From the IMG/VR virus record IMGVR_UViG_3300042398_000857: 20,000 bases of DNA; one strand, written 5' to 3'. The stretch comes from an uncultured virus (IMG/VR IMGVR_UViG_3300042398_000857). Its lineage: Duplodnaviria > Heunggongvirae > Uroviricota > Caudoviricetes. The notes beneath the pieces were generated by a model. It ran no database searches and was not told the DNA's origin. It worked only from the letters and a program-made list of their open reading frames with translations. Both the position numbers and the translations under genes were made by a program. Positions within the stretch are counted from its first letter, which is position 1. The number at the start of each line of letters is the position of its first letter. Positions 9,068 to 20,000 of this stretch are shown one piece after another.

Positions 9068-10234
9068 TTAGCTAAAACGAACGTTTGCGCTAGTAATTCT
9101 AACTAAACCTAAGTAGTCAGCAGCATTACCTAAAGATGATGCTGTGTTGCTCAACTCTACGTAACCGTAACGAGTTAAGAAGCTAACAACTGGTTCAAAT
9201 GTAGATGGATCTAACACAACACCACTGCTCATTAATGGGATATATGGGCAGTAGAACGCTGGAGCATCAGATTCTGAAGCACCTTTGTAACCAACCAAGA
9301 TATCGGTTGCATCATTTGCGTAGCTGTTTACATAAACTTTCAATGCATTGTTTAAAGTACCAACAAATTTTGTGTTAGTTGGAGCTTCAAAAGTACCTTC
9401 TGTAGTACGAGCAAAAGCTGAAGTAGTAGCAGATTGTAAAATTGTTAATGCAAATGGAGAAACAACAGCATAGTTACCAGCACCACGGCGTGTACGTTGT
9501 GCAATCAAGTTGCTTACACGGTTGATTTGGATTGCCAATGCAGCATGTTCGTCACCAACGAAAGTTGCAGTACCAGAAACTTGTGCTTGATCATAAGTTT
9601 GTGTTGGTGTACCAGCTAAGTTGATTAAAGAACTAATAATTTCTTGGTCAATTTCAGCTGTAATTTCTTGTGCCAACGCAGCCATAATTTCTGCTTCAAC
9701 GTCAATACCTTGTTGTGCTTGAGCATCTTGTGCTGCTTCAAATGTCCAACGAGCACTCAATTTACGAGTTTTCGCTTCAACAGTTTGTTTCAAGATTTGG
9801 ATGCTCATTCTTTTACCAGCAACACCTTCTAAAGACGCAGTTGATGATGCACCAGCTGGGCTTGAATCGTTACCTGAATATGCTTCCGCAATTTTGAATG
9901 GTGATAATGCTTCTTCACCTGCAGTTACGCCAGTTGCATTGTCTGCATAACGTACACGCAATGTGTGAATTTGGCCAACAGGACCGGTCATTGGTTGAAC
10001 ACCAACTAATTCGTTAGCAATAACGGTTGGCATAACACGGCGAATTACTGGTAAAATTACACGGTTTAAAGTTGCAACGTTACCTGCAGATGTACCACCA
10101 GCAGTTGCGCTTTCTGATAAGTATCTACGAGTGTTTTCTAAAGTAACACCCATCATTGTTTTTTTAGTTCCCTGTAGACCTTCTAATAGGGCTTCTTTCG
10201 TTTCCGCCCAACGGCCATTAAGTAGTTCTGACAT
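9068..10234 (-). CDS. gp23: Major capsid protein, T4 gp23 family
   Basis: Motifs RRVMPTVIANELVGVQPMTGP, KTRKLSARWTFEAAQD, EITAEIDQEII, RTRRGAGN, FYCPYIPL, DPSTFEPVVSFLTRYG; AAGGAG SD; canonical gp21-gp22-gp23 order. Confidence 0.97.
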   Translation of the reverse strand: MSELLNGRWAETKEALLEGLQGTKKTMMGVTLENTRRYLSESATAGGTSAGNVATLNRVILPVIRRVMPTVIANELVGVQPMTGPVGQIHTLRVRYADNATGVTAGEEALSPFKIAEAYSGNDSSPAGASSTASLEGVAGKRMSIQILKQTVEAKTRKLSARWTFEAAQDAQAQQGIDVEAEIMAALAQEITAEIDQEIISSLINLAGTPTQTYDQAQVSGTATFVGDEHAALAIQINRVSNLIAQRTRRGAGNYAVVSPFALTILQSATTSAFARTTEGTFEAPTNTKFVGTLNNALKVYVNSYANDATDILVGYKGASESDAPAFYCPYIPLMSSGVVLDPSTFEPVVSFLTRYGYVELSNTASSLGNAADYLGLVRITSANVRFS

Positions 10235-10251: not shown

Positions 10252-11340
10252 TTAAAGCCCAGCGAGTCTACGGATATCTATAATGTTTGATTCCGATTCG
10301 CTGCTACGATTAGTTTTGGAAGTTTTATTTCCAGTTATTTCTTTAGCTTCTACGAGTGCTTGTCTCTTTTGAGGAGCATTGCCAGCAATAACCGCTGGAA
10401 GGTACTTTTCGAAACTTTCAGTTAATTTAGAAGTTTTTACACTTTCCATTAATTCACTCATGATTGAACGCTGTTCACTATTTAGAGGTGATAGTAATTC
10501 GCCCATGATTTCTTTTCTTTGTTGAGCTTCCTTCAACATACGAATTTCTGCTTGTTTACTTTCTAAGATTTTCTCTGCAGATAAAACAGCTTTAGCTGCC
10601 TCTTGCATTGCTTGATCTTTCATGTCTATGACTTTGAGTAATTTAGCAGTTTCGGATTTTTCGTTCAAATAACTGGTTTGATATTCTGCTGCAAATGCTT
10701 CGAATAATTTACGACCGAATTCTGAACGGCGAGCTGCTTCGATGTCTTCTTTAAGAGATGTAATTTCTGAGCGTAAGCCCTTGTTTACAACACTTTCAAC
10801 CATTTTTGCAGCACGATGAACAAACTGTTCTTTTACTTTTTTGATTTCTTGACGACCTTCACGTAAAACTCTTACTTTGGTTTCCGCCAATTCCTCTTTA
10901 TCTTTATAGAACTCTGTAATTTCTTGAGCTAGAGCTTCAACTACGAAATTTTCTAGAGTTTCAAATTTACTAACCATTTGCATTTGATCTTCGTGCAATT
11001 CTTTAACTTCTGATGCTAATTGACGTGTTACGAATTTTTTCATAACATTAGCACTTTCAGTCATTTTTTTAGCATACTTAACTTTCATTTCTGCTAATTG
11101 TCTACGATCTTCTGCGAATTCTCCGATTTCACCAACAAGTTGATCAGAGATCATACGATCTACTGCTTCAATCATGGTGTTTTTATCGTGTTCGTATTTT
11201 TGTGCAAACTCTTCACGTAATACTTGAGCAACTTGTTCACGATTTTCTAAAATCTTACGATCCCAAGCTTGTTCAATTGACTCTTTGATCTCTCCAGAAA
11301 TCACGTTGTTTTCAAATAATTTGTTTAATGCTTCCAACAT
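10252..11340 (-). CDS. gp22: Prohead core scaffold protein, T4 gp22-like
   Basis: Glu/Lys-rich coiled-coil protein between protease and capsid genes; GGAGA SD; GLRSE...GRKLFEAFAAEY segment. Confidence 0.85.
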   Translation of the reverse strand: MLEALNKLFENNVISGEIKESIEQAWDRKILENREQVAQVLREEFAQKYEHDKNTMIEAVDRMISDQLVGEIGEFAEDRRQLAEMKVKYAKKMTESANVMKKFVTRQLASEVKELHEDQMQMVSKFETLENFVVEALAQEITEFYKDKEELAETKVRVLREGRQEIKKVKEQFVHRAAKMVESVVNKGLRSEITSLKEDIEAARRSEFGRKLFEAFAAEYQTSYLNEKSETAKLLKVIDMKDQAMQEAAKAVLSAEKILESKQAEIRMLKEAQQRKEIMGELLSPLNSEQRSIMSELMESVKTSKLTESFEKYLPAVIAGNAPQKRQALVEAKEITGNKTSKTNRSSESESNIIDIRRLAGL

Positions 11341-11353
11341 GTGATTCTCCCTA

Positions 11354-11980
11354 TTATTGGAGGTTGCCTATTATATTTAATAGGCTCTCTTTGAGATATT
11401 TTTGCGCCATCGGATCACCCTTCACTTCTTGCGCTATACGCAATGCACTATAACCACCTTTATTGTTTAAAAGGTGTTCATAAATTGGTGTAGGATATGC
11501 TCCTGGAGCACTGGGCTGAGCTACCATATCTACTGTGATAATCTCAAAATCTGATACTTCATTTGAACCGTCATTACTGACATTTCCAGAACCTCTAGAG
11601 GAGACACCTAATTTAACGCCGCTTTCCAACATTGTTTTAATTAGTTGTCCCATAGGGGTTGGCAAGATTTTAAGCTTGCCATAACCATTTGGACCATCCA
11701 TCCACATATTAGTTATCATATGTGATACACGGTCCAAATTTATTTTTAGATCATCTGGATGATCTACTTCTCCGAGTACGGAATAACCGTTCTGAATCTG
11801 ATCATTAAGGGTCTTAACAGCCTTGCTAATCTCACTCACAGGGTAAACACGTTGATTTGCATTGCGGATACCTCCTTGAATGCAGATACCCGACATATGC
11901 AAGTTTTTACCTTCTCTATCGTCAGATTCAACGATTATCTGTGCTTCGTTAAAACTTAGATTTTCTCGGAGATGCAACAT
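11354..11980 (-). CDS. gp21: Prohead protease, T4 gp21 family
   Basis: Motifs NANQRVYP, LGEVDHP (catalytic His), LGVSSRGSG (catalytic Ser), DMVAQPSAPGA. Confidence 0.96.
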   Translation of the reverse strand: MLHLRENLSFNEAQIIVESDDREGKNLHMSGICIQGGIRNANQRVYPVSEISKAVKTLNDQIQNGYSVLGEVDHPDDLKINLDRVSHMITNMWMDGPNGYGKLKILPTPMGQLIKTMLESGVKLGVSSRGSGNVSNDGSNEVSDFEIITVDMVAQPSAPGAYPTPIYEHLLNNKGGYSALRIAQEVKGDPMAQKYLKESLLNIIGNLQ

Positions 11981-13202: not shown

Positions 13203-13210
13203 TATTTATC
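13203..13210 (-). promoter_or_regulatory. Late promoter motif GATAAATA overlapping the portal stop codon
   Basis: Minus strand TGATAAATACATTATG: the motif lies 4 nt before the ATG of the 79-aa ORF, which suggests a leaderless or near-leaderless transcript. Confidence 0.5.
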
Positions 13211-14960
13211 ACATTGGGCTCACGGGGGGTGGATTTTGCCCCATTCCAGGTGCTGCGCCTGGAACATTACCAGTTGAATCTGGTAGTAGATCTCCTTCCA
13301 TTTCTGGAGGTATGCCTAGATCCCCGGCCATACCTAAATCACCTTCAATACCACCAGCGGATAAGCCAGCACTTCTCATTTCACCTGCTGAATCTGTGTG
13401 GGTTGGTTGACCTTTACCAGATTCTTCTCCCCATAAACGTTCGTTTTCTGCCATTTCATCTTCATTTAATCCTAAGAATCGTTTCATAGCGAAACGTTTA
13501 CTCATATATGGTAATTGTTGAATGGTGTTAAATGTGTTAATGCGTTCAGTATCTAATGCAGCCTGTCTTGAACTAGCAAAATTGAGTGGTGGGTTGAATG
13601 ATAATTCAAATAAATTCGAATCAATGTTTACACCACGTGAATGCATATATGATTTAAATTCAATATCGAATACTTCAGTGATTAAGTTTTGAAGTCTCTC
13701 GCAATATTTGTTAAATCTCAATTCTTGAATATATGCAGTACCAACACGACCATCATTAAATGATGCTTGACTGTCATCCGCACCAGTAGGTAAATATGAA
13801 CTTGGAATTCGTAAACCACGGAATAATTTATTTGTGAAATATTTTAAATCATCAATTTCACCTAAATTAGTACCACCTGGTAATACATCAACTTTACTAC
13901 CACGTCCATCAGCAGTCATTGGAAAGAAATAATCTTCGTTAATTGATAATGGATTATATGCACTATCAATAACGTTTTGCCCACCACCAGATTGACTTGG
14001 AATACGTCTTTGATGAATTTCATTTTTTACACGTTCAACAAATGCCATAGCTAAATGACTAGGCATATTACCAACATCAATATGGAATACACGTCTTTCT
14101 GGAGCACGTTGAATACGATAAATTAAAATTGCATCTTCTAATAATTCTTTTTGTTTATATACTTTGAAGACATTTTCTAATAAACTATTACCAAATGGAT
14201 AATTATTATCCAAGCCTTCTGATAAAGATAAGTGAATAACATGTTCAGCATTTATTGCGTGTTCGGTTTCCGCTAATCCCCAGCGACTACCAGAACTACT
14301 AGTTGGATATGCACCAGATGTGCCACGTTGGGTTGAATTAGCGCCTAAGTAGCCGCTACTTGGAATAACTCCGCCACCATTTTGTCTTGGATTAACATTT
14401 GGTGTAATTTGTGTTGCAACTAAATTTTCAAAATTTGGTGCCAAATCTTTAATAATATACTGTTCAGGTTTTTTACCTTCACTTTCATTAACAATAATTT
14501 TAATAATTTTACTAGGATCGACCCATGACCATTTTTGTGTTTCTGGATCTCTAATAAAAAATGCATCACCATATTTAAATACATTTCTAACAATTCTAAA
14601 AATTCGTGTGTCAAATTGTTGAATTTTACACCATTGTTGTAAATATTCTCCCAATATTCTAACTTCAGAATTTGTAGCCTTACTGCGCCATTTAACTGAA
14701 AATGGACTTTTTTTATCTTTCAATTTATCTGTACAAAATTCTGCTAGAATATCGAGCGCAGCATTAACTTCTGGATCGCTATCCATTACTTCATATTGTT
14801 GATATCTATCAACTCTATTTGGACTACCAGTATATACATCTGGTAAATAACTAGAATAATTTGTTCTAGCGGGACCAGCTTTTGCTAATCCATTGGCACC
14901 TGATAACGGGCTTAATGAATTACCAACATCTACTGGTGTAAAGTGTTTTTTCCATGACAT
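13209..14960 (-). CDS. gp20: Portal vertex protein, T4 gp20 family
   Basis: Motifs LEDAILIYRIQRAPERRVFHIDVGNMP, EDYFFP, LPGGTNLGEIDDLKYF, LRIPSSYL, ELRFNKYCERLQ; AAGGA SD. Confidence 0.97.
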   Translation of the reverse strand: MSWKKHFTPVDVGNSLSPLSGANGLAKAGPARTNYSSYLPDVYTGSPNRVDRYQQYEVMDSDPEVNAALDILAEFCTDKLKDKKSPFSVKWRSKATNSEVRILGEYLQQWCKIQQFDTRIFRIVRNVFKYGDAFFIRDPETQKWSWVDPSKIIKIIVNESEGKKPEQYIIKDLAPNFENLVATQITPNVNPRQNGGGVIPSSGYLGANSTQRGTSGAYPTSSSGSRWGLAETEHAINAEHVIHLSLSEGLDNNYPFGNSLLENVFKVYKQKELLEDAILIYRIQRAPERRVFHIDVGNMPSHLAMAFVERVKNEIHQRRIPSQSGGGQNVIDSAYNPLSINEDYFFPMTADGRGSKVDVLPGGTNLGEIDDLKYFTNKLFRGLRIPSSYLPTGADDSQASFNDGRVGTAYIQELRFNKYCERLQNLITEVFDIEFKSYMHSRGVNIDSNLFELSFNPPLNFASSRQAALDTERINTFNTIQQLPYMSKRFAMKRFLGLNEDEMAENERLWGEESGKGQPTHTDSAGEMRSAGLSAGGIEGDLGMAGDLGIPPEMEGDLLPDSTGNVPGAAPGMGQNPPPVSPM

Positions 14961-16892: not shown

Positions 16893-16918
16893 GAGTATAT
16901 AAATACTCTTATATTTAG
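16893..16918. promoter_or_regulatory. Overlapping divergent late promoters within a palindrome
   Basis: TATAAATA on plus at 16898-16905; CTAAATA on minus at 16912-16918; inverted repeat GAGTAT-ATAA-ATACTC at 16893-16908. Confidence 0.7.
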
Positions 16919-16928
16919 CGGAGAATAC

Positions 16929-17753
16929 ATGTCAAATCCTTTACAAAACTACTTCAGACAGCCTAAAATTTACTTAAAATTACCATCATTAGGGAAATAT
17001 AATGACCCAAGTTCTATAACTGGAAATATTGAAAATATGCCAATTTATGGAATGACAGGCATGGATCAGATTATTATTAAGACACCGGATGCATTATTAA
17101 ATGGTGAAAGTACAGTAAAAATAATTCAAAGTTGTTGCCCAAATATTTTAAATGCATGGGACATCACTAATTTGGATATTAATAGTTTACTAGTTGCTAT
17201 TAGAATTGCTACATTTGGAAATGTAATGAATATTATGACCACTTGCAATCATTGTAATACTGAAAGTAATTATGATGCAGATATATCACAATTTTTGCAG
17301 CATTTTTCTTCAGGTAAATTCGACCCAAATGTAGTTGTGGATGATTTAGTAGTGAAATTAAAACCGTTATCATATAAACAAGCAACCGCACTGGGTTTAG
17401 AAAACTTCACTTTACAAAAACAATTATTTCAATCGCAAGATATAGAAGATGATAAGCAACGTCAAGAAATTGTTTCTAGAATTTATGAAGAGTTTGCTGT
17501 TTTACAAAACAAATCGTTAGTTGCTAGTATTGATTATGTTGAAACACCATCATCGGTAGTATCAGAATATGGTTATATTAAAGAATGGATTGATAATTGT
17601 GACGATTCTGGTATTAAGAAAATTAAAGAGAAATTAGATAGCAATAGCATGTTATGGAAAGCACCATCATTATCAGTAAAATGCGTTGAATGTGGTGCTG
17701 TTAATGAAGTTGAGATTGAAATGGATAACGCAAGTTTTTTCGCCAACGCCTAA
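16929..17753 (+). CDS. gp26: Baseplate hub subunit / tail assembly chaperone, T4 gp26-like
   Basis: N-terminal P-x-x-Y-L-K-L-P-S motif, LLVAIRIATFG, two CxxC motifs (CNHC, CVEC), C-terminal ...SFF; GGAGA SD. Confidence 0.75.
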   Translation: MSNPLQNYFRQPKIYLKLPSLGKYNDPSSITGNIENMPIYGMTGMDQIIIKTPDALLNGESTVKIIQSCCPNILNAWDITNLDINSLLVAIRIATFGNVMNIMTTCNHCNTESNYDADISQFLQHFSSGKFDPNVVVDDLVVKLKPLSYKQATALGLENFTLQKQLFQSQDIEDDKQRQEIVSRIYEEFAVLQNKSLVASIDYVETPSSVVSEYGYIKEWIDNCDDSGIKKIKEKLDSNSMLWKAPSLSVKCVECGAVNEVEIEMDNASFFANA

Positions 17754-17758
17754 CGAGA

Positions 17759-17974
17759 ATGAATAATAGTGAGATCGAGCAATATCTCGTTGGGCTAGAT
17801 CATGAAATACTGCATTTTAAAGAAGAACTTTTTAGAATTAGTTGGCATATGAGAGGTGGAGTAAATATTAATGATTTACTCCATACATATTCACAAGAAG
17901 ACATTGATATAATGAATTCTATTATTAATGATCATATTGAGCTTACAAAAGAAACTCAAATTGCATTAATTTAA
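17759..17974 (+). CDS. Small gp51-like baseplate hub assembly protein; probably also (or only) expressed as a -1 frameshift extension of the upstream ORF
   Basis: Short helical ORF (ELFRISWHMRGGVNINDLL) directly after the gp26-like gene; its frame is open back to 17729, through a T-TTT-TTC heptamer; no well-spaced SD. Confidence 0.6.
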   Translation: MNNSEIEQYLVGLDHEILHFKEELFRISWHMRGGVNINDLLHTYSQEDIDIMNSIINDHIELTKETQIALI

Positions 17975-18648
17975 ATTTTTATTTTTGAATAATCAAGTGG
18001 TGCAAAAGTTGATCTGTTACTAATTCCTGCATCGGTATTTGCTTTTTCAGCAGCACTTGGTATATAATCCGGTGATCCCACTTTAGGTTCATACTTTGGT
18101 TCTGGTAATTTACCAGTTTGGTAATACTCTTTTCCAAGAGAGATTGTATTAGATATTAATTGCTTAAAGTCTTCCAGTAATGCATAAAATGTATCAGTCA
18201 TTCCATTTAATAGTCCTTCTGAGATAACCTGAACTAATATTTTTTTCCCTTCTCCAGTTGCTACCACGACAATCACCGCACTATTAATAGCCGCAGTTCC
18301 TAATCCAATAGCTGAGGCAATCACACCACCAAATGGTAAAATACGTAATAACTGTGAAAAACCAGAAAATGTTTTAAGGAATACACTCGCAGCAAGGATC
18401 AATACTAGTTTTTCAACTAATATATCGAAATGTTTCTTTTCTTCCAGATCATATTGTTGTTTTGTAATCTGTTTTGATTCCAATTGCTTTTGAAGTTTAT
18501 ATTTTGCCCACATGTAAGAACCAAATATATATCCTGCTCCCAATAGATTAGCAATCTTTAAGATATTCCCCATTCCTGTACCAAGAGTAGATAAGAATCC
18601 TTCATTTATATTTTCATTCTTATTTTCAATAATTTCTTTAACTTTCAT
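17971..18648 (-). CDS. Hypothetical late protein with hydrophobic (TM-like) segments; candidate internal head / ejection protein
   Basis: 225 aa; N-terminus MKVKEIIE...INEG contains I-x-E sites; 2-3 hydrophobic stretches; TAAATA upstream; its stop overlaps the convergent ORF's stop in TTAA (17971-17974). Confidence 0.65.
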   Translation of the reverse strand: MKVKEIIENKNENINEGFLSTLGTGMGNILKIANLLGAGYIFGSYMWAKYKLQKQLESKQITKQQYDLEEKKHFDILVEKLVLILAASVFLKTFSGFSQLLRILPFGGVIASAIGLGTAAINSAVIVVVATGEGKKILVQVISEGLLNGMTDTFYALLEDFKQLISNTISLGKEYYQTGKLPEPKYEPKVGSPDYIPSAAEKANTDAGISNRSTFAPLDYSKIKI

Positions 18649-18673
18649 ACGTAATTATCCATATATTATTCAT

Positions 18674-18681
18674 TATTTATC
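18674..18681 (-). promoter_or_regulatory. Late promoter motif GATAAATA
   Basis: 25 nt upstream of the ATG at 18648. Confidence 0.55.
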
Positions 18682-18692
18682 ATATCATGTAG

Positions 18693-18749
18693 AGGTGAAC
18701 GGAGTTCACCTGGTCTTCGCTAACGCTCATCCCATATTCGCTAACGCTC
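18693..18749. repeat. Perfect hairpin AGGTGAAC-GGA-GTTCACCT followed by two 13-bp direct repeats TTCGCTAACGCTC with 21-bp period
   Basis: Hairpin 18693-18711; repeats 18716-18728 and 18737-18749. Confidence 0.85.
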
Positions 18750-18784
18750 TTAATTCAATAATGATAAAACATCTTACCCCTGTA

Positions 18785-19190
18785 CATATTCATCTAGATT
18801 ACGATTTACACACTTTTGCCCCCTTTCGGGAGCAAAAAAATAATTTCATCTGAGTTGACTTCATTACCTAGCGTTACACTGATTACAGAGGCGGTTGGCC
18901 GTTACCTCGAAGTGCGTCTTTTGTTTCTATGTTCCAACGGTGGCATTAGGAAAATACGCTAGTCATATTCCTAATACGTCTGGGAATTACCCAGTCATTT
19001 AGCCTTTTTTCATTTGTTCAAAGATATAAAATTGGTTTTACTGAAGGCGTATCCAATCATCATCCACAACACGAGGTGTGGGTAGTTATATCAGTCACTG
19101 CTTCTGCTCAGTTGTTACGCTCAATGCGAAGAACATTCCATTGCCAACGGCACCTATCAAACCACCGGTGCGAGTGTATCAGAAGTTTTA
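18785..19190 (-). ncRNA. Candidate large structured non-coding RNA (class unidentified)
   Basis: No ORF in the track; more GC-rich than its flanks; at least 7 stems; G-U wobbles and a GAAA tetraloop favour the minus strand; two loop-to-distal complementarities suggest pseudoknots. Boundaries approximate. Confidence 0.55.
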
Positions 19191-19237
19191 TTGCCTATAA
19201 ATGCCTTAAATTGTGTGGTTAATTTGCCTGATGATAT

Positions 19238-20000
19238 CTATTGTGTGCCTTTTATATCGTTTATTATAGATACATAATAATCTGTTTTTTTCGAAATGGT
19301 CCAAACTAATCTATATATGGAATCGGTCTCAATAGCAATCTCCTTTACTGATATACCATTGCTCAATAATCTAGTGATATTAACATATCTTTCCAAATCA
19401 TTTTCTACCTTTTTTCTAGTAGTATCATATCCACGTTTTATATTTGACTGCCGGGTTGCGTTCTTGTGTTCTTCACTCAATATTTTATTCATTTCTGAAC
19501 GCCGAATGGAATGTTCTTTTTTTCTAATTGGGTTATTATCCCAATTTTTTTTCATTGCAGTTATATGGGTGTCTGATAATTTTTTACCCTTTGTTGCTTT
19601 ACTTATGTTTTCTTTCCAAGTCTCAATTTGTTTTTCATCCATTTTATAGTAACATGGTTTTCCATACATGTTATTATTTTTGCCTTTGTGTTTGCCTATA
19701 TTTGCCTGTCTTAATTTTTCTTTAGTTTCATCGGAATGTTTACCGTGTTTCATTTTACCATCTAGAAATTGCTGTTTTGCATAATTGCTTAACAATTTTT
19801 TTAATTTGGCTGCTTTTTCAACACCATATAATTCATCAAATGATTTATTTTTGTTATGAGGGATTTTGCCAAACATTGGATTATTTTCACCTCTGTAATG
19901 GTCATCCAACCATTTTTCATAATCCGCCACAGTCATTTTAGTTATTGTGTAGTCATCTCCTGTGAGGATTTTACTTATCGCTATTCTAGTTTCATCAGCT
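19238..20000 (-). CDS. C-terminal part of a NUMOD3-repeat homing endonuclease-like protein (catalytic domain, e.g. GIY-YIG or HNH, presumably beyond the window end)
   Basis: Frame is open from 19936 to the window edge (...ADETRIAISKILTGDDYTITKMTVAD...). NUMOD3-like motifs GKHSDETKEKLRQANIG, GKKLSDTHITAMK and LSEEHKNATR; G-x-NN-x-M-[FY]-GK twice; C-terminal HTH-like LLSNGISVKEIAIET. Confidence 0.75.
   Translation of the reverse strand, partial: ADETRIAISKILTGDDYTITKMTVADYEKWLDDHYRGENNPMFGKIPHNKNKSFDELYGVEKAAKLKKLLSNYAKQQFLDGKMKHGKHSDETKEKLRQANIGKHKGKNNNMYGKPCYYKMDEKQIETWKENISKATKGKKLSDTHITAMKKNWDNNPIRKKEHSIRRSEMNKILSEEHKNATRQSNIKRGYDTTRKKVENDLERYVNITRLLSNGISVKEIAIETDSIYRLVWTISKKTDYYVSIINDIKGTQ

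Follow-up and report, generated by a model that had tools for sequence, protein, structure and literature searches.

The 20,000-nucleotide stretch analyzed here (the window) is IMG/VR record IMGVR_UViG_3300042398_000857, from an uncultured virus of the Caudoviricetes, and consists of clustered T4-like genes for the phage head and tail. Two minus-strand genes, one for a nuclease (19238 to beyond 20000) and one for a 225-residue protein (17971–18648), leave 590 bases between them, and in this gap lies a large structured RNA, which an earlier note made from the sequence alone had placed at 18785–19190. On balance, we favor reading 19196 to about 18693 of the minus strand as an independent gene whose product is a large, structured non-coding RNA belonging to the Polynucleobacter-1 class, in which a repeat would serve as an "address" read by base pairing; we hold this reading with modest confidence. 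The features of the locus are collected in Table 1.

Table 1. Features of the RNA locus and its surroundings, in window coordinates. Covariation figures are those of the 40-sequence alignment A1 described below.
Feature	Position	Strand	Remark
5' domain (RF01718)	19020..19176	-	P1, P2, P3 and three-way junction P4/P5/P6
P1	19150-19171	-	5/5 pairs covary
P2	19124-19141	-	5/6 pairs covary
P3	19097-19112	-	3/4 pairs covary
P4	19087-19092 with 19023-19028	-	6/6 pairs covary
P5	19064-19081	-	weaker: 2/5 pairs covary, 73% paired
P6 (AUUGG/CCAAU)	19030-19058	-	5/6 pairs covary, 95% paired
PKA, CUUCUG with CAGAAG in P3 loop	19180-19185 with 19101-19106	-	new pseudoknot
PKB, AAGGC with GCCUU in P6 loop	19002-19006 with 19044-19048	-	candidate pseudoknot
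P7 (CUGGG/CCCAG)	18980-18994	-	in 2010 consensus structure line
P8 (GUAUUAGGAA/UUCCUAAUGC)	18943-18977	-	in 2010 consensus structure line
PKC, CUAGCGU (P8 loop) with ACGCUAG	18956-18962 with 18868-18874	-	7/7 pairs covary, 98.9% paired
3' core	18868..18940	-	PKD 5' strand, P9, P10, PKC 3' strand
PKD, GUUGG with CCAAC in P10 loop	18934-18938 with 18894-18898	-	new pseudoknot
P9 (GCACU/AGUGU)	18911-18915 with 18876-18880	-	4/5 pairs covary
P10 (GAGG...CCUC)	18888-18908	-	nearly invariant
P12 (GUAAU/AUUAU)	18840..18867	-	loop holds unit A; stem read by eye in several relatives
Unit A, AACUCAGAUGAA	18845-18856	-	12-base repeat in P12 loop
P11, UUUUGCUCCC-GAAA-GGGGGCAAAA	18814..18837	-	GC-rich hairpin between units A and B
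Unit B, AAUCUAGAUGAA	18789-18800	-	direct repeat of unit A save UCU for CUC
3' module	18693..18749	-	two GAGCGUUAGCGA(A) copies and closing hairpin
GAGCGUUAGCGA(A) copies	18737-18749, 18716-18728	-	in 3' module
Closing hairpin, AGGUGAAC-UCC-GUUCACCU	18693-18711	-	probable end of RNA gene
Upstream flank with AGGCA repeats	19197..19262	-	seen in alignments
SegE-type GIY-YIG homing endonuclease with NUMOD3	19238..20000	-	5' end outside window; not part of RNA
225-residue gene, no Pfam family	17971..18648	-	from ORF (open reading frame) list; similar N-termini in relatives
T4 baseplate protein	16929-17753	+	Pfam
T4-type portal	13209-14960	-	Pfam
Prohead protease	11354-11980	-	Pfam
Gp23 major capsid	9068-10234	-	Pfam

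Identity of the RNA

A cmscan search against Rfam placed RF01718 (Polynucleobacter-1) at 19020–19176 on the minus strand with 64.2 bits (gathering score 37, E = 7.8e-12), covering the whole model, positions 1–141, without truncation. No other family reached its gathering score over the window; between 18500 and 20000, at E up to 10, four others appeared, none an intron family and all far below their own thresholds. Since the RNA matches a known family, it is neither novel nor unclassified as the earlier note had called it, and that note had itself named a hit to an Rfam family as what would remove novelty. Its remark that no hallmark of tRNA, tmRNA, RNase P or group I/II introns could be seen agrees with ARAGORN, which found 0 genes in the window, and with the lack of any such Rfam match. 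A tmRNA or tRNA-like RNA is likewise discarded (0 ARAGORN genes in the window, no Rfam tmRNA match).

The Polynucleobacter-1 motif was first described in 2010 (Weinberg et al., Genome Biol 11:R31, PMC2864571), where 16 sequences are given for it. Table 1 of that paper scores it "y" as an RNA, tentatively "y" as cis-regulatory and "?" as a switch, with the distribution "Burkholderiales, fresh water/estuary." The accompanying Stockholm alignment (supplementary file 5) extends about 150 bases past the Rfam model, which stops at 141 positions, and ends at the 3' strand of the P8-loop pseudoknot. P7, P8, P9/P10 and this pseudoknot (CUAGCGU/ACGCUAG) are already drawn in its structure lines SS_cons and SS_cons_1, so the 3' half was less new than the earlier note supposed. 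In the literature searched, on structured RNAs of jumbo phages and on RNA-guided tyrosine recombinases, we met the name Polynucleobacter-1 in Weinberg et al. alone and found no later work on the RNA. What appears to be added to the record here are the pseudoknots PKA and PKD, a 3' tail with paired repeats, the GAGCGNNAGCGA module, a variant of the 5' domain and a version carried by integrative elements. The full phage gene is about 500 bases long, and the Rfam model covers about a quarter of it.

Covariation across relatives

Related loci, at least 118, were fetched from IMG/VR with an 18-base motif from the GAGG...CCUC hairpin, and all counts of phage loci rest on the matches listed. Iterated nhmmer, a search that the earlier note had suggested, found homology in 94 of them, and 33 of these span the whole 391-position profile, equivalent to window 19196 to about 18780. 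Two loci, L011 and L036, are identical to the window at the RNA and were used in lieu of its own or nearest record; record G001 (100% of sampled words) has only a 27-base match to 18640–19240 and no match to RF01718.

Covariation was scored on a MAFFT alignment of 40 distinct sequences (A1) against a structure of 96 pairs, including four pseudoknots; raw mutual information over all column pairs was swamped by shared ancestry, and the count over this named structure was used in its place. The structure is paired in 81.8% of cells, compared with 66.5% in shuffles, and none of 500 shuffles reached the observed value. Sliding the partners by 1–3 columns left only 38–44% of cells paired. Two-sided changes occur in 72 of the 96 pairs. 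All stems and repeats listed in the earlier note were found on the minus strand at the positions it gave, and compensatory changes in the 40 relatives support most of its helices. The minus strand is backed by G-U pairs (one P6 pair is GU in 29 sequences, and one P9 pair in 26), with which the strand of the Rfam match agrees. Folding energy (z = −1.76 for minus, −2.20 for plus) separates neither the two strands nor the RNA from chance. The helices, the covariation and the Rfam strand together bear out a large structured minus-strand phage non-coding RNA; the extent first assigned to it ends before the 3' module, which reaches about 18693.

Within the 5' domain, all five pairs of the GCACC/GGUGC stem covary. 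The CUUCUG/CAGAAG pairing, noted earlier as a long-range stem, does covary, and is actually a pseudoknot with the P3 hairpin loop (PKA). It is scored as one helix of five of its six pairs, all five covarying and 81% paired; the sixth, counted apart, covaries too (77% paired). PKA is in neither the Rfam model nor the 2010 alignment, whose consensus structure line begins after the CUUCUG strand (PMC2864571, supplementary file 5). The two pseudoknots proposed in the earlier note fared differently: CUAGCGU/ACGCUAG (PKC) is strongly supported, and GCCUU/AAGGC (PKB) is 81% paired and almost invariant, with one double change each in two of its five pairs, and thus conserved but unproven by covariation.

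P7 and P8 are only about 56% paired on A1, because MAFFT misaligns hairpins of variable length; in single-sequence folds the long P8 hairpin is present in every printed locus. Anchors for folding P7 and P8 were poor, giving exactly two hairpins in 20 of 38 and 23 of 63 sequences, with the 5' anchor often inside P7. In the 3' core, PKD is paired in 99.5% of cells, with CG replaced by UA at one pair (26 versus 14 sequences) and AU by GC at another (25 versus 14), the variant GUCAG/CUGAC occurring in 14 of the 40 sequences. A third variant, GUUGU/ACAAC, can be read in the 2010 alignment, though the pairing is absent from its structure lines (PMC2864571, supplementary file 5). PKD, in general form a GUYRG/CYRAC pseudoknot, goes beyond the 2010 record. 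By these comparisons, at least three of the proposed pseudoknots are supported by covariation, and the junction bases of the body are invariant on A1. CCGUUGG occurs twice in the window RNA (19143–19149 and 18934–18940, minus strand); the one lying between P1 and P2 (the 5' copy) is confined to close relatives of the window and could compete for the CCAAC loop.

Paired repeats in the 3' tail

The earlier note had drawn attention to two AGAUGAA copies. These are real and far from chance: the exact 7-mer is repeated between units A and B at 70 of 83 anchored loci, in 11 variants. Of the 13 exceptions, ten belong to a subgroup whose tail differs; the other three are a 6-mer match, a cut locus and a variant. 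Across the unit columns (18851–18845 and 18795–18789), five variable positions are identical between the two units in the 31 full-length sequences, one cell excepted, and CUC in unit A versus UCU in unit B is a fixed difference. The units have changed together at least ten times. For five positions to be kept identical through at least ten changes, base pairing or a copying process is needed.

Partners for the repeats were sought at several scales. No segment complementary to the units was found at a consistent place in the RNA or in the 1.5-kb flanks. In the 270-kb phage record G004, the 12-mer unit pattern occurs only at the two units, and no complementary 12-mer lies on the other strand. 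In G006, YYYAGATGAA is frequent on the coding strand. A jumbo-phage subgroup of 10 loci carries the RNA without unit B, and no second copy of its P12 loop was found within 3.5 kb. Reading the units as promoters or promoter mimics was rejected, as the 12-mer pattern is found nowhere else in G004 and the TATAAATA late promoter stands elsewhere in the window.

Between the units, P11 covaries in six of ten pairs, with 80.5% of cells paired. Neither the window nor its relatives have a U run after it, which rules P11 out as a terminator. The P12 stem scores poorly on the MAFFT alignment (34–46% paired). Several further readings of the tail were considered by eye and fail in several variants: a small ORF across P11, stop-codon or anticodon mimicry, CsrA sites, a self-palindrome of unit B, and a hammerhead or K-turn reading of the GAGCG module.

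Downstream of the units, the motif GARCGNNAGYGA occurs twice in the window, where 0.02 are expected, and in 66 of 119 loci, always on the RNA strand and downstream of the RNA. Positions 3 and 10 never mismatch among 60 distinct copies (55 G-C, 5 A-U), and 55 copies are then followed by a hairpin. The motif is accordingly predicted to be a two-pair stem closing a GNNA loop between G-A steps, and the RNA gene probably ends at the closing hairpin, near 18693. The GAGCGUUAGCGAA motif is doubled, 21 bases apart, in the window, L011 and L036, and single in every other motif-bearing locus listed.

A stand-alone gene

The RNA is a stand-alone gene; it is no intron and no obligate leader, and it is not tied to one neighboring gene. 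The first downstream ORF of at least 150 residues is convergent at 24 of 45 loci and lies on the same strand at 21. A group I intron is dismissed by the lack of an Rfam intron match and by flanks made up of an intact nuclease gene and of genes that are unrelated or convergent, with no exons. A processive antitermination element would suit the positions of the four copies in phage record G002 (below) and fails at loci with convergent next genes.

We infer that the RNA has its own promoter and end. Just 5' of the RNA, relatives share TAGAACA, about 6 bases and then AGGCAAAATAA, a motif that may be a promoter and that we liken to a middle promoter; a consensus scan of this flank found no sigma-70-type site. 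Contigs from the RNA libraries of three studies cover 18778–19196 at 85% identity or more. They stem from relatives and so show presence in RNA libraries and say nothing on ends or strand, which makes them a weak hint of stand-alone expression. They leave 17000–18716 and 19222–20000 uncovered save for short stray pieces; since the relatives differ there, this says nothing on expression of the flanks.

Two points weigh against a stand-alone gene. The consensus scan found no promoter or canonical terminator, and the 2010 authors gave the motif a tentative cis-regulatory score (PMC2864571). The latter is an annotation and does not define the motif structurally, and the convergent next gene at 24 of the 45 loci does not agree with a cis-regulatory position.

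Genomic setting

The phage that carries the RNA is an uncultured jumbo phage of lake water whose head genes are T4-like: the sequencing runs that contain the stretch are lake-water metagenomes, and the cultured phages nearest by capsid protein are jumbo phages of 350–470 kb (Sinorhizobium phage Phosso, 71%; Vibrio 2.275.O, Serratia BF and Cronobacter GAP32, about 67–71%). Against 50,697 phage records, blastn returned nothing at E ≤ 1e-5 with the window as query and nothing at E ≤ 1 with locus L026. RF01718 is absent from all four cultured relatives chosen by capsid similarity.

Pfam finds NUMOD3 on the window's piece of the upstream nuclease. The identical full gene in L036 (3–1169) matches SegE_GIY-YIG at 6e-33, with NUMOD3 at 19.8 bits, just under the 20.4 cutoff; we read its C-terminus as helix-turn-helix-like. 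The gene upstream of the RNA belongs to the SegE-type cluster at 36 of 50 loci, is PDDEXK_15 at 4 and RNase H at 2, and is unrelated at the rest, with Pfam run on cluster representatives only. Three close relatives (L044, L060 and L008) have a PDDEXK_15 nuclease in place of the SegE-type one. At many loci, the upstream gene is an approximately 145-residue SegE domain without the DNA-binding part; in L004 and L009, ORFs of 148 and 154 residues have SegE_GIY-YIG spanning residues 9–135 and 7–127. These nuclease genes are swappable homing-type genes.

On the downstream side, we take the N-terminus of the 225-residue protein (MKVKEIIENKNENINEG) to resemble the capsid-targeting leader of T4 internal head proteins. 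Downstream genes of relatives (window 17971–18648; L026:1737–2879; L008:1722–2675; L123:4499–6904) are mutually unrelated, and many begin MK(I/V)xEI..., with an E-G or E-A step following after 15–20 residues; we liken these starts, too, to the leaders of T4 internal head proteins. Elsewhere in the window, a T4-type late promoter, TATAAATA, stands at 16898 (plus) and 12912 (minus), upstream of the baseplate gene and of a 290-residue gene, and an ATAGGCA box recurs 5' of the RNA and of the genes at 10252–11340 and 11354–11980.

Variants, multiple copies and bacterial carriers

At 21 loci, which form a subgroup, the 3' core and tail are retained and the 5' domain is a different one, with no RF01718 match in any of the 14 loci scanned. 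Both the jumbo-phage subgroup (all five copies that were scanned) and L045 do match RF01718. The 327-kb phage record G002 (the record of L027; 92% complete) has four copies of the RNA, at 35014, 165335, 232703 and 310903, three of them without an adjoining nuclease. Each is followed by 0.6–0.9 kb of non-coding DNA full of short repeats (CTAAAAGATAAT, CATCTATAAGA and ACATACATTTT boxes), and the coding strand switches from minus to plus 2–6 kb ahead of three of the copies. Arrays of small paralogues with a GWRLPT motif, which we take to be DUF1566-like, lie upstream of the G002 copies. The convergent gene by one copy (L030:881–892 region, L078) reads in translation like a large terminase with an intein.

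A consensus of the 5' domain retrieved eight bacterial loci, among them loci in the complete chromosome of Limnohabitans sp. DCL3 and in metagenome-assembled genomes of Limnohabitans, Comamonadaceae and Burkholderiales; the complete chromosome suggests that DCL3 is a cultured strain. The bacterial RNA lies in an integrative element, with an integrase and a DUF6641 gene upstream. In three of the four loci with enough flank (L135, L136 and L129), it precedes a gene for a protein of 188–194 residues; the DCL3 protein (L135:3902–4468, 188 residues) is a tyrosine recombinase catalytic domain only (Pfam PF00589, residues 6–178). These copies match the phage profile in the 5' domain only. The bacterial RNA is about 650–700 bases long, conserved in alignment, and ends in the same kind of tail: ACUC-AUCGAA, a hairpin and AUCU-AUCGAA, then GAGCGNNAGCGAA and a hairpin. 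The units are again identical, AUCGAA in both, or AGCGAA in another lineage.

Proposed function and alternatives

The most likely specific mechanism, though unlikely in absolute terms, is self-addressing, in which the RNA would pair with its own DNA as an R-loop. The folded body would be a scaffold for a variable 7-base "address," shown twice and read by base pairing. At unit B, the non-template strand reads the same as loop A, so loop A could pair with the template DNA strand there once transcription opens it. Such pairing would keep the transcript tethered to its own locus in a persistent R-loop, which may then prime or mark replication or recombination. We put self-addressing first because the template strand at B is the only sequence that is automatically complementary to unit A and covaries with B.

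Several observations weigh against it. The contact would comprise only 7 perfect base pairs, and pairing leaves the fixed CUC/UCU difference unexplained. As the jumbo-phage subgroup carries the RNA without unit B, the core function cannot depend on the repeat. The positions of the G002 copies and the repeat-rich DNA behind them suit an origin-like role, but they suit the heads of transcription units equally well, and because strand switches also mark such heads, the G002 placement is ambiguous. Finally, a body with several pseudoknots and invariant junction bases exceeds the needs of known origin transcripts and would be at least as fitting for a ribozyme, for binding a ligand or for scaffolding proteins. 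The wider proposal of a self-addressed RNA of mobile elements, 500–700 bases long and presenting a programmable 7-base address that recurs in the adjoining DNA, that forms an R-loop at its own locus or guides the SegE-type nuclease or the 188-residue recombinase is a long shot. The remaining probability is open both to a partner in trans and to a function without pairing.

Without pairing, the RNA could be a ribozyme or a self-assembling or protein-binding scaffold like GOLLD, ROOL, OLE and raiA, its repeats docking by other means. We rank this next and consider it improbable. The size of about 500 nucleotides in phages and about 650–700 in bacteria, at least three covarying pseudoknots with invariant junction bases, and carriage by phages, with several copies per genome, all fit such a role. 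Docking of this kind leaves the identity of the five variable positions unexplained, however; there is no match to an Rfam ribozyme family, and no conserved gene for a protein partner was found among the neighbors.

Two further explanations are, in our estimate, similarly doubtful. One is a cis-regulatory leader of the riboswitch or attenuator type, whose core would sense a ligand or factor while the tail switches pairings, the segment just 3' of unit A pairing with either the flank before A or the flank before B. Inspection by eye of L026 and of the group-3 alignment showed such alternative pairings 3' of unit A. The downstream gene is on the same strand at 21 of 45 loci, often sharing the N-terminus MKxxEI..., and the small recombinase gene follows the bacterial RNA at three of four loci. 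The 2010 scoring ("cis-reg? y, switch? ?"; PMC2864571, Table 1) points the same way. Where the next gene is convergent, as at 24 of the 45 loci, there is nothing to regulate. The RNA also ends in its own hairpin module, and the downstream genes have no common pathway. A TATAAATA late promoter stands between the RNA and the downstream gene in two of 24 printed loci (L026 and L029), and related AAATAA-rich boxes do so in several others.

The other is a trans-acting RNA, an antisense or guide RNA or a set of immunity-RNA targets as in P4 CI and P1 C4, whose 7-mers would pair with an RNA from the host or from the element. That the units change in perfect concert calls for a nucleic-acid partner, unit A is placed in a hairpin loop, and the carriers are two kinds of mobile element, phages and integrative islands. 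Against this stand the missing complement, sought in the RNA, the 1.5-kb flanks and, as a 12-mer, the 270-kb record, and the absence of any antisense-RNA Rfam family at E up to 10 over 18500–20000.

Least probable is a guide or scaffold of an RNA-guided DNA enzyme, with the approximately 145-residue SegE-type GIY-YIG protein as partner in phages and the 188-residue tyrosine recombinase in Limnohabitans: the upstream ORFs of L004 and L009 are a SegE_GIY-YIG domain and little else, the bacterial neighbor is a Phage_integrase catalytic domain only (residues 6–178 of 188), and a short "programmable" sequence matches adjacent DNA, but the RNA lacks an adjoining nuclease or recombinase in three of the four G002 copies, in L130 and at loci with unrelated upstream genes, the window nuclease has DNA-binding modules of its own (NUMOD3 and the helix-turn-helix-like end), and two nuclease families alternate at one place in the fashion of homing genes.

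Significance

As first noted, the finding rediscovers an RNA class listed by Rfam since 2010; what makes it valuable is the part missing from the database entry. Against the 141-position model, the true unit is three to five times longer. It is carried by giant phages of lakes, of which one genome can contain up to four copies, and by integrative elements in freshwater bacteria that are abundant (Limnohabitans and Polynucleobacter). The Polynucleobacter-1 RNA thereby joins the few very large bacterial and phage RNAs whose function is not known. The co-changing repeats of the tail are a rare signal and offer a concrete, testable handle on function, and a corrected full-length covariance model would improve the annotation of freshwater viromes. 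Were the wider proposal of a self-addressed RNA true, it would be a new RNA-directed DNA transaction outside CRISPR, the OMEGA (IscB/TnpB) nucleases and bridge RNAs, one that would start replication, recombination or homing.

Comparison with known systems

GOLLD and ROOL are large, richly structured RNAs of phages and prophages with no known function. The window RNA is likewise large, structured and phage-carried, and differs in having no Rfam match to them and no tRNA genes nearby in the window (ARAGORN). In the P4 CI and P1/P7 C4 RNAs, direct repeats are the targets of a complementary segment between them. The likeness lies in two direct repeats on one transcript that change together between related elements; an immunity RNA of this type was rejected, because the repeats are present here with no complementary segment at a consistent place. 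T4 SegB is a free-standing GIY-YIG homing endonuclease encoded by stable RNA genes in the tRNA gene cluster. Here, too, a Seg-type nuclease gene adjoins a conserved RNA gene, but the RNA is no tRNA and the SegE-type gene alternates with PDDEXK_15 at one place. An IS110 bridge RNA or an IscB/TnpB omega RNA was rejected, as the neighbors are SegE_GIY-YIG, PDDEXK_15, RNase_H, Phage_integrase and T4_baseplate, with no DEDD, IscB or TnpB protein and no Rfam match.

Closest to self-addressing are R-loop origin transcripts, of which the window RNA has the sequence precondition only, loop A being identical to the non-template strand at unit B. T4 oriF and oriG are R-loop origins with a promoter and an unwinding element, and in ColE1 RNA II an upstream RNA stretch (the rG/dC contact) touches the template near the origin and is needed for a persistent hybrid (PMC4412123). 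Each of these systems keeps its transcript, structured or driven from a promoter, on the template. Loop A could similarly contact the template strand at unit B. Compared with ColE1 and T4, the window RNA is far more elaborately folded, and the candidate contact is only 7 base pairs. The nearest relation of all is Polynucleobacter-1 itself: the authors' alignment has the same P7–P10 hairpins and P8-loop pseudoknot (PMC2864571), and the fresh-water habitat is common to both. Where the 2010 table entry names "Burkholderiales" as such, the carriers seen here are jumbo phages and integrative elements.

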